DNA from: Chlamydiota bacterium
Lineage (GTDB): Bacteria > Chlamydiota > Chlamydiia > Chlamydiales > JAAZZY01
DNA length: 64,000 nt
Direction: 5' to 3'
Assembly (NCBI GenBank): GCA_022601345.1
Contig: JAJACU010000019.1
Span: 112,474 to 176,473, forward strand
Position 1 is the first letter of the stretch, and the number at the start of each line of letters is the position of its first letter. Positions 47,855-49,330 of this stretch are shown here, piece after piece. A program made the translations under genes and the position numbers. The notes under the pieces are model-generated. The model made no database searches. It was given only the letters and a program-made list of their open reading frames with translations, and was not told where the DNA came from.

Positions 47855-49330
47855 ATGAAGCAAAAAGTTGCATTAAAGATTCTAGTTGGAGTTTTGGCTA
47901 TTGGAGCAATTGTTTCTACGGCTTATTTCGGTGAGCTGCGATTTAAACCAAATAATCGCTGTAAATGCGTTTCTCAGTTTCAAAATGATAAAATTAGAAA
48001 GATTTTTAGTTACTTAAGAAATAATGATGTTTCATTTGAAGAATGCTTACTTAAGTCAGGGGCTCTTTGTGAAGCTGAAATGAACGAAGCCTATCATAAG
48101 GCTGTAGATCTAGGTGAATATGATTTAGCAATAAAGCTTTATAGCCTTGGAGCCACAGACTGTTATCAAAAGAATAAAGACATTTTACTTGTTTGCCTCA
48201 ATGCTGGGCGTTTTGATTTAATTGGGCAGCTTGTTAAACCAGACTATCCAATTGATGCGTCTCACATTAATGCAGCTAAATCATTAATAAATGTAAGTCA
48301 ACCCAATTGGGCGTTTATCTATCAAAAAAATGATACGGATAGAGTTGGATTTTCGGATTACCAAGAGAAGTCTAAAGATGTTATTATGCGTATTATAGAT
48401 ATTTACAGACAGCAGCATCCCGTAAAAAAAATTGATTTTCTAAGCCAGTCTGAACACGAAAAAAGTTATGCGTCAATTTTTGGAAAAGAAGCACAAAAAG
48501 ACTTTCAAGAGGCGCTTAACAAAGCCATTAAAAAAGGTTATTCATTTGATGTAGCTAAGCATGGCAGCCAAAAGAGAGTTATTATACTCGACAAGCATGG
48601 TAAAAGCTTAGGGATCATTAAGAGTAAAAATGAGTTGCTAGCTTATGCATTTGATCTAGATCATTTTGCTAAAGTTCCTCCTGTAGCAGAGGTCTTTATT
48701 CCTGAATATGGTCAAGTTATTGTACAAAAGTGGGTTGCTAATACTAAAATGGTGAGAGATCATCAGATTAAAAGTGAAGAATCTTCTCAACAAGCAAATT
48801 TAATAGAGCAACTTCATCATATACGTATGCTTGATATCCGCCTTGGAAATAGTGATCGCAATAACGGTAACCTGTTAATTACTAAGCAAAATGATCAATG
48901 TAATATCATACCCATCGACCACGACCTACTGATGTTTTATATTCCAAATGATTTAGACTGGGAAGCCCCTTATTTAAATCTTCCATTTTCTAAAATAACT
49001 CAAAGTCACATTAGCAAAATAGACTTAGAAAAAGATGCTCTTACAATGAAGAAATTCTCTTGTAGTGATGAAGAAATAAAGTCTATGAAGCTTCGAACAA
49101 CTCTTCTAAAAATGGCTGTTGCCAATCATCTTGAGCTTAGAGAAGTTGATATGTTGTTTAGATTTTACTACTATGATTTTCTAGATCAAGTTAGAAATCT
49201 TTCTGCAGAATCTTCTGAAGAGCAATACCAACAAATTCTTTTTCCACATTTTAAACAGTCTATTGCTGTAATTCAACAACCTACGGAAGTCTGGAGATTA
49301 ATAGGAAATAGCTTTGAATTTTATATTTAG
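47855..49330 (+). CDS. Membrane-anchored protein with ankyrin-like repeats and a type-II phosphatidylinositol 4-kinase-like catalytic core
   Basis: 491 aa. N-terminal TM helix ALKILVGVLAIGAIVSTAYF. ANK-like helices at aa 60-130. Kinase motifs: GKSLGIIKSKNE (compare PI4K2A GVFKPKNEE), the catalytic loop LDIRLGNSDRNNGNLLI (compare LDYIIRNTDRGNDNWLI) and IPIDHDL (compare IDNGL). Confidence 0.7.
   Translation: MKQKVALKILVGVLAIGAIVSTAYFGELRFKPNNRCKCVSQFQNDKIRKIFSYLRNNDVSFEECLLKSGALCEAEMNEAYHKAVDLGEYDLAIKLYSLGATDCYQKNKDILLVCLNAGRFDLIGQLVKPDYPIDASHINAAKSLINVSQPNWAFIYQKNDTDRVGFSDYQEKSKDVIMRIIDIYRQQHPVKKIDFLSQSEHEKSYASIFGKEAQKDFQEALNKAIKKGYSFDVAKHGSQKRVIILDKHGKSLGIIKSKNELLAYAFDLDHFAKVPPVAEVFIPEYGQVIVQKWVANTKMVRDHQIKSEESSQQANLIEQLHHIRMLDIRLGNSDRNNGNLLITKQNDQCNIIPIDHDLLMFYIPNDLDWEAPYLNLPFSKITQSHISKIDLEKDALTMKKFSCSDEEIKSMKLRTTLLKMAVANHLELREVDMLFRFYYYDFLDQVRNLSAESSEEQYQQILFPHFKQSIAVIQQPTEVWRLIGNSFEFYI

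Follow-up and report, generated by a model that had tools for sequence, protein, structure and literature searches.

The 64,000-nucleotide stretch analysed here (hereafter the window) covers positions 112,474 to 176,473 of contig JAJACU010000019.1 in the genome of a Chlamydiota bacterium (assembly GCA_022601345.1). At 47855..49330 on the + strand, its open reading frame (ORF) listing contains a gene with an ATG start that encodes a protein of 491 amino acids, built from a hydrophobic N-terminus, a helical-repeat domain and a kinase domain resembling the type II phosphatidylinositol 4-kinases (PI4Ks). The same gene is predicted by gene callers on public contigs. Its orthologs, all from Chlamydiae metagenome-assembled genomes (MAGs), fall into 22 cluster representatives with 40–81 % identity, nearly all of ~490 residues, one of which is titled 'MAG: hypothetical protein [Chlamydiae bacterium]'.

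Conservation of the kinase locus

Synteny was compared in six loci (L001–L006) from species-representative genomes titled Chlamydiia/Chlamydiae MAGs or 'uncultured bacterium', among them MAG S4.2_7 of the metagenomic chlamydial family MCF-D (PMC9666466). The gene occupies one and the same slot in all six, which reads V-type ATPase operon, fumC, (98-aa ORF), kinase, (0–2 small variable ORFs), 155-aa lipoprotein, Na/Ala symporter and valyl-tRNA synthetase. Even in L004 (CAYGJM010000013.1), from a more distant MAG, the kinase gene (6001..7431) sits between fumC and the lipoprotein/symporter genes, in the orientation opposite to all its neighbours. In L002 and L003, identity to the window is 44–45 % for the kinase, against 66–67 % for fumC, 60–63 % for V-ATPase subunit I and 70–76 % for the symporter. 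The kinase gene thus changes faster than its housekeeping neighbours, a pattern typical of host-interaction proteins.

These observations identify the kinase gene as an old, vertically inherited chromosomal gene of this environmental chlamydial lineage. Eukaryotic contamination was considered as its source and rejected, because synteny is kept across six bacterial MAGs. Recent horizontal acquisition was likewise rejected, given that the local GC content of the gene (0.36–0.37) is the same as that of the remaining window and that the slot is conserved. A scan for promoters and terminators around the gene returned weak consensus matches only, none of them usable.

Assignment of the kinase domain to the type II PI4K family

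The protein matches the Pfam family PF00454 (PI3_PI4_kinase) over residues 313–426 (E 1e-14), and its score of 55.5 bits lies far above the gathering cut-off of 27.1; this match is already precomputed in public databases. All 22 orthologs match the same family, the best of them at 9.4e-17. No NCBIfam model matches the protein, and a search of PDB sequences with either the single protein or the ortholog profile found no chain, so that the link to human PI4K2A and PI4K2B becomes visible only through the wider family profile and through the fold.

To define that wider family, an exhaustive profile search was run against 1.84 billion representative proteins, which gave 1492 relatives at E <= 0.001, of which 523 reach E <= 1e-10. 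Common to them is the motif LDIRLxNxDRxxGNxLV, followed by PIDH 7–17 residues on. The consensus of a 53-sequence alignment that includes the window protein displays the type II PI4K signatures G..G.Y, AVFKP.DEE, RE.AAY.LDH..FAGVP, GS.Q.FV, LD.RL.N.DRH.GN.LV, PIDH and W..W.Q...PFS. Searched against PDB chains, the profile of this alignment finds PI4K2B (E 5.6e-22) and PI4K2A (E 3.4e-21), whereas the type III enzyme PI4KB reaches only 0.01. The chlamydial ortholog profile was also compared by hhalign with 16 eukaryote-labelled relatives, including sequences from the euglenid Peranema and the green alga Ostreobium, an MMETSP transcript and a JGI cluster named 'phosphatidylinositol 4-kinase type 2'. 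The two profiles align over 214 columns (residues 217–437) with a probability of 99.9 %, an E value of 1.5e-34 and 28 % identity, and the eukaryote-labelled profile itself matches PI4K2B and PI4K2A at ~1e-26 and ~1e-24. It contains N-terminal ubiquitin-like (UBL) domains, which is the architecture of the plant-type PI4K-gamma.

An AlphaFold2 model built on the ortholog alignment has a mean predicted local distance difference test score (pLDDT) of 83.1 and a predicted template modelling score (pTM) of 0.73. In a Foldseek search with this model, ranks 1–3 are all PI4KII-alpha (4hne, 4hnd), with E values from 6e-6 to 1e-5, a probability of 1.0 and template modelling (TM) scores of 0.49–0.53 normalised to the target. 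PI4KII-beta is also among the best fold matches, which further include the type II PI4K entries 4wtv and 9hhm, with PI3K-alpha and VPS34 behind at lower TM scores. Because these three independent lines (motif consensus, profile–profile comparison and fold) agree, we regard the membership of the kinase domain in the type II PI4K family as nearly certain. The original prediction for this gene, made from the letters of the window alone, had described a bacterially encoded PI3/PI4-kinase of type II flavour and proposed a PF00454 search and a structure prediction as checks; both checks bear it out, as does the hhalign comparison.

Catalytic residues and a deleted loop

Taken together, hhalign, Foldseek and Pfam delimit the kinase domain to residues ~229–445 (48539..49189, +), with the N-lobe strands at 229–299 and the C-lobe at 310–445. 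In the model, strands 229–233, 242–246 and 251–256, the last ending at K256, are followed by helix 259–266, which bears E260, and strands 277–299 finish the N-lobe. The C-lobe begins with helix 310–330 and continues through the catalytic loop (331–339), a hairpin (340–353), D355 and an activation segment of lower confidence (356–379) to helices that reach residue 483.

The sequence elements fall where this fold needs them. The stretch KHGKSLGIIKSKNELL closes its beta-strand at K256, the ATP-binding Lys of strand beta3 in the KxKNE motif (K256-S-K-N-E260; 48620..48634, +), as checked in the translation. The catalytic loop DIRLGNSDRNNGNLL (D327–L341; 48833..48877, +), also checked in the translation, contains D334, R335 and N339 and aligns to LDYIIRNTDRGNDNWL of PI4K2B. 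The motif PIDHDL (P353–L358; 48911..48928, +), which aligns to AIDNGL of PI4K2B, supplies the metal-binding D355, the counterpart of the DFG aspartate. The ortholog alignment has 59 invariant columns, including K256, N259, E260, D327, R329, N332, D334, R335, N339, P353–L358, W369 and F378, and even in the 53-sequence alignment D334, R335, N339 and D355 are invariant and K256 is nearly so. The hallmark residues had been predicted at K256, D334 and D355, where we find them, and the case had been made to depend on their conservation; all three are invariant in 22/22 orthologs. Judging from its sequence, the kinase is in all likelihood catalytically active.

Between K258 and N259, ~34 alignment columns of the eukaryotic enzymes are absent from the chlamydial proteins and from three relatives outside the chlamydial set (P0023–P0025), according to both hhalign and hmmalign. 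A cysteine-rich CCPCC palmitoylation motif in the kinase domain is a hallmark of type II PI4Ks (PMC13573033). The window protein lacks this motif and has no adjacent cysteines (Cys at 36, 38, 64, 72, 103, 114, 349 and 403), and CCPCC is also missing from the consensus of the eukaryote-labelled alignment. The CCPCC of human PI4K2A sits in the segment after the KxKNEE motif, and the deletion takes out the loop that bears the palmitoylation motif in the animal enzymes.

The N-terminal hydrophobic helix

Hydropathy, charge and the model all point to a hydrophobic helix at residues ~5–26 (VALKILVGVLAIGAIVSTAYFG; 47867..47932, +), which could be a signal-anchor or a long signal peptide. Its Kyte–Doolittle peak is 2.25, and the model draws it as a single continuous helix over residues 2–29. 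Every ortholog whose N-terminus is complete has such a segment, in which 2–6 net positive charges precede an uncharged core of 16–21 residues (mean 17.6). The transmembrane helix of the original prediction thus stands as a conserved hydrophobic helix, while its role as an anchor is only one of two fits: the segment is borderline and might plausibly either anchor the protein in a membrane or be cleaved off as a long signal peptide.

In both cases, the remainder of the chain is predicted from the charge bias to leave the bacterial cytoplasm. The mean net charge is +3.65 on the N-terminal flank and +2.05 on the C-terminal flank, and since the more positive flank is the N-terminal one, the kinase domain is predicted to cross the inner membrane. 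ATP is not supplied to the periplasm, so a translocated kinase could work only after reaching ATP on the host side. With the palmitoylation loop deleted, an alternative anchor would also make sense. We lean towards a kinase that acts outside the bacterial cytoplasm, on host material.

The helical-repeat domain

Between the helix and the kinase domain, residues ~45–232 (47987..48550, +) form an all-alpha domain of helical-hairpin repeats. Modelled in isolation with AlphaFold2, it has a pLDDT of 85.6 and 11 helices, and the spacing of its helix pairs is irregular (~37, 25 and 28 residues). The original prediction had called these repeats ankyrin-like; the stretches on which it relied do form helix-turn-helix pairs in the model, and the ankyrin label itself found no support in Pfam, in PDB profiles or in the fold search. 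No Pfam Ank family matches at E <= 1, whether in the 22 orthologs or in the isolated domain, and the same sequences match no other Pfam family in this region. Against PDB sequences, the best hits of the repeat-domain profile are the ankyrin proteins KANK2 and Kidins220, at non-significant E values of 0.18–0.9. Foldseek places the ankyrin domain of TRPV1 first (E 0.2, TM score 0.28) in a list mixed with PPR and TPR proteins, none of them below E 0.2. The likeness to ankyrin is a resemblance only, and unproven.

Given that distant relatives align only from residue ~176–264 on, the repeat domain is specific to the chlamydial orthologs. These ~190 residues probably serve in targeting or partner binding.

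A wider bacterial clade of related kinases

Neighbour-joining trees were built from the kinase cores of 192 sequences, with bootstraps on 68 taxa; their root is unknown, and most sequences other than the labelled ones are unlabelled metagenome proteins. In the 192-core tree, the chlamydial orthologs join P0023–P0026 and the short proteins P0029, P0032, P0034, P0035, P0042 and P0056. Wherever the motif could be matched, the members of this clade carry PIDHD, as opposed to PIDHG/S/T elsewhere. The bipartition that separates the bacterial PIDHD clade appears in 100/100 bootstraps, and that of the chlamydial orthologs alone in 96. Identity between the chlamydial kinase core and other clade members is 27–33 %, and all sequences labelled eukaryotic fall outside the clade.

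The five non-chlamydial members with readable contigs all sit in dense bacterial gene neighbourhoods: P0025 lies between tig and clpP-clpX, P0032 adjoins an NlpC/P60 gene and a PreP-like peptidase gene, P0042 adjoins toxin–antitoxin-like genes, P0024 adjoins BTB and SET-ankyrin genes, and P0023 is surrounded by metabolic genes. The contig of P0058, from a neighbouring small group, is also bacterial. On the P0024 contig (L012; ena:ERZ27251177 k141_584202), the region 148..4977 codes for two proteins with eukaryotic-like domains, one with a BTB domain and one with a SET domain plus ankyrin repeats, suggesting another host-associated bacterium. In the sister proteins P0023, P0024, P0026 and P0170, one transmembrane helix precedes the kinase after N-terminal extensions of 27–165 residues. 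The short bacterial group (350–375 aa; e.g. P0032 and P0042) has no hydrophobic segment, nor does P0058, and the ~34-residue N-lobe segment is partly missing from the short group.

Uncharacterised bacterial PF00454 proteins are not rare in metagenomes, and a survey of the Legionella pan-kinome notes 'phosphatidylinositol kinase-like' proteins as well (PMC9758233). The bacterial PF00454 homologues outside the chlamydial set differ from the chlamydial kinase in lacking the helical-repeat domain and in their neighbourhoods. A phylogeny had been proposed as a way to examine transfer from eukaryotes to bacteria. It yields a separate bacterial clade in an unrooted tree with few labels, and a single ancient eukaryote-to-bacterium transfer is plausible. 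For its own PI-kinase-like proteins, the Legionella survey favours a bacterial origin (PMC9758233).

Comparison with known kinases and secreted effectors

The animal type II PI4Ks (human PI4K2A and PI4K2B) and yeast Lsb6 have the same kinase fold, and their KxKNE, DRxxxN and ID motifs align with those of the chlamydial kinase residue by residue, at only 13–17 % identity in structural alignments. Their N-termini are proline-rich or acidic, where the chlamydial protein has a hydrophobic helix and a repeat domain, and they combine IDNGL with the CCPCC loop, in contrast to the PIDHDL and deleted loop of the chlamydial enzyme. The PI4K-gamma proteins of plants, algae and protists have in common with the chlamydial kinase the motifs LDIRLxNxDRxxGNxLV and PIDH, then PFS...YI..LD..D. 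Unlike it, they carry UBL N-terminal domains, keep the ~34-residue N-lobe segment and have a canonical GxGGSYF.

The concept of a pathogen's own phosphatidylinositol (PI) kinase that rewrites vacuole identity is known from Legionella (LepB, LegA5/AnkK and MavQ), Francisella (OpiA) and Rickettsia (Risk1/Risk2) (PMC7298712, PMC11077975). None of these effectors is described as a type II PI4K homologue, and literature descriptions set them apart from the chlamydial kinase. LepB_N is a Pfam family of its own, and Pfam does not cover OpiA/AnkK or MavQ; AnkK and LepB group with FAM20/CotH, apart from PI3_PI4_kinase (PMC9758233). For Risk1, the best threading template is CtkA of H. pylori (PMC11077975). 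Literature searches for a type II PI4K homologue in chlamydiae or other bacteria found no report, and a 2025 review of PI4Ks and pathogens mentions only the hijacking of host enzymes (PMC13573033).

The Legionella, Francisella and Rickettsia effectors are secreted by type IV or type VI secretion systems. We know of no use of either system for effectors by Chlamydiae. The chlamydial inclusion-membrane (Inc) proteins carry N-proximal hydrophobic segments and end in the vacuole membrane facing the host cytosol; they are defined by a bilobed hydrophobic domain of ~40–60 residues. The chlamydial kinase has one segment of 16–21 uncharged residues at its extreme N-terminus in place of a bilobed domain, and to our knowledge no Inc protein has a kinase domain. 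Background on Inc proteins is given in PMC7862739.

Proposed function and alternative explanations

We propose that the N-terminal helix directs the remaining chain out of the bacterial cytoplasm and may then anchor it in a membrane. The exported kinase would sit on a host-derived membrane, most likely that of the bacterium's vacuole, with its kinase domain turned towards the host cytosol. That is where an obligate intracellular chlamydia would find ATP outside its own cell, so an exported kinase would act there, using host ATP to phosphorylate PI at the 4-position. Left uncleaved, the helix would hold the enzyme on the vacuole or on some other host membrane in place of the lost palmitoyl loop, and the compartment would gain the identity given by phosphatidylinositol 4-phosphate (PI4P) without host PI4KII. 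This fits the need of Chlamydia inclusions for PI4P and host PI4KII-alpha, as described in the passage of PMC13573033 that cites Moorhead 2010.

Export to the host, membrane orientation, a lipid rather than a protein as substrate and the 4-position of phosphorylation are what we infer. That the kinase makes PI4P from PI is a possibility to which we give slightly less than even odds, and we are equally tentative about the whole chain, an exported, host-membrane-bound kinase making PI4P from PI, although it is the likeliest of the functions considered. It is less likely than not that the enzyme goes further and represents a genuine type II PI 4-kinase, which no bacterium had been known to possess, with a transmembrane helix replacing the palmitoyl anchor and PI4P made at the vacuole unaided.

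Several observations weigh against the proposal. The missing ~34 N-lobe residues could alter substrate handling, and the glycine-rich loop is divergent, HG[ST]Q(K/R) as compared with GxGGSYF, with G237 and Q239 invariant and the GGSY core not retained. A small residue near the end of the hydrophobic core in many orthologs would allow a cleaved Sec signal peptide instead of an anchor, and the single segment, with no second one anywhere in the protein, is unlike the bilobed Inc domain. By profile, the nearest eukaryotic relatives are the plant/algal-type PI4K-gamma kinases with UBL domains. The type II PI4Ks of plants reportedly 'fail to synthesize PI4P' and are Ser/Thr protein kinases that phosphorylate RPN10, UFD1 and ANAC078 (PMC4986951), so a lipid substrate cannot be assumed from family membership.

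This last point leads to the main alternative, to which we give somewhat less weight than to the proposal: an exported Ser/Thr protein kinase of the plant PI4K-gamma kind, to which host proteins are recruited by the helical-repeat domain. The UBL-bearing relatives, one of them from Ostreobium, share LDIRLxNxDRxxGNxL and PIDH with the chlamydial protein, their plant counterparts reportedly phosphorylate proteins and make no PI4P (PMC4986951), and a dedicated repeat domain before the kinase would suit protein recruitment. Yet PI4KII-alpha and PI4KII-beta, which lead the fold matches, are genuine lipid kinases, anchoring close to the membrane fits a lipid substrate, and the bacterial clade stands apart from the plant-type enzymes in the tree, so plant biochemistry need not transfer to it. 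The kinase might also never leave the bacterium, remaining anchored in the inner membrane and working in the cytoplasm, in signalling or envelope remodelling, with a bacterial protein or a lipid, whether bacterial or imported, as its substrate. The vertically inherited gene does lie among housekeeping genes (V-ATPase, fumC, symporter and valyl-tRNA synthetase), both flanks of the helix are positive, which leaves the topology uncertain, and the homologues P0032, P0042 and P0058 combine the absence of a hydrophobic segment with ordinary bacterial neighbourhoods. We nevertheless consider such a role improbable, given that the flank charges (+3.65 versus +2.05) favour an N-in, C-out orientation and that the raised divergence rate is more typical of host-facing proteins; nor is phosphoinositide chemistry known to belong to the biology of the chlamydial envelope.

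A PI 3-kinase effector of the OpiA, LegA5(AnkK) or Risk1 kind, whose product would be phosphatidylinositol 3-phosphate (PI3P) or the 3,4,5-trisphosphate PI(3,4,5)P3, would be in keeping with the characterised bacterial PI-kinase effectors, which are all 3-kinases except LepB (PMC7298712, PMC11077975), and the naming of LegA5/AnkK as an ankyrin-repeat protein recalls the ankyrin reading of the N-terminal domain. It is very unlikely here: OpiA/AnkK/LegA5, LepB and MavQ lie outside PF00454 by the literature (PMC9758233), of which the chlamydial kinase is a clear member; type II PI4Ks come out best by profile and fold, ahead of PI3Ks and VPS34; and neither Pfam nor Foldseek detects ankyrin repeats in the chlamydial protein. 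The divergent glycine-rich loop and shortened N-lobe could, finally, be taken as signs of a pseudokinase or scaffold that binds a nucleotide or phosphoinositide without catalysis. This we regard as extremely unlikely, since the beta3 Lys, the catalytic Asp-Arg, the Asn and the metal-binding Asp are all invariant across orthologs that are only 40–81 % identical.

Other genes of the locus and the window

Downstream of the kinase gene, the gene at 50637..51104 (+) encodes a predicted lipoprotein of 155 aa, whose signal sequence ends in the lipobox LTGC and is followed by a Cys-rich stretch. It follows the kinase slot directly in 6/6 related loci, with 45–77 % identity, and has no Pfam match. Two small ORFs lie between these genes in the window, at 49376..50011 (+, 211 aa) and 50080..50580 (+, 166 aa). 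Both begin with an acidic or Gly/Ser-rich stretch, contain a single hydrophobic segment and lack a Pfam match. L001 has a pair of the same build (7551..8213 and 8328..8876) whose C-terminal tails are clearly paralogous (APET[NS]QDHIDARAER...), the window pair has no detectable mutual similarity, and L002 and L003 leave no room for such a pair. The products of these small ORFs may be membrane or secreted proteins that evolve fast. Immediately before the kinase, the 98-aa ORF at 47452..47748 (+) recurs in L001, L005 and L006 at 52–58 % identity and shows a sub-threshold likeness to ABM monooxygenase-like domains (E 0.027). A complete V/A-type ATPase operon at 38442..45913 (+) lies immediately upstream of fumC and the kinase; it contains a DUF2764 gene and the genes for the A and B subunits, a D-like subunit, a 638-aa subunit I and the subunit K proteolipid, the last with 86–98 % identity across related MAGs.

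Further away, a 2301-aa ORF at 56866..63771 (+) has an N-terminal two-partner secretion (TPS) domain (PF05860, E 1.5e-11, above the cut-off) and no Pfam match in its remainder, and it resembles a giant secreted exoprotein or adhesin of the TpsA type. Three other products of the window have domains that are more characteristic of eukaryotes: a MYG1-family exonuclease at 9836..10717 (+; PF03690, E 1.8e-53), a protein of 284 aa at 8725..9579 (+) whose ankyrin repeat scores below the threshold (E 8.5e-4) and a 596-aa HEAT-repeat protein at 11549..13339 (+). In a 448-aa protein at 14553..15899 (+), SPW repeats occur together with a domain of the vitamin K epoxide reductase (VKOR) kind.

Significance

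What is new here is a bacterial, loop-deleted and putatively helix-anchored branch of the type II PI4K family, whose importance hinges on biochemical proof. Pathogenic Chlamydia borrow host PI4KII-alpha, and Legionella, Francisella and Rickettsia secrete kinases of their own from other families. A chlamydial enzyme of the host PI4KII family would be a direct molecular mimic, and borrowing the host enzyme and bringing one's own would then both occur within a single phylum. Such an enzyme would also offer a naturally minimised type II PI4K, with a transmembrane anchor and no palmitoylation loop, for structure–function work. Should it prove to be a protein kinase instead, the puzzle of plant 'PI4K-gamma as protein kinase' would extend to bacteria. 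Beyond the chlamydiae, the analysis draws attention to a broader bacterial clade of type II PI4K-like kinases that has gone unstudied; if the proposed function is true, this PIDHD clade would be an unrecognised family of phosphoinositide-writing enzymes, distinct from LepB, OpiA, MavQ and Risk.

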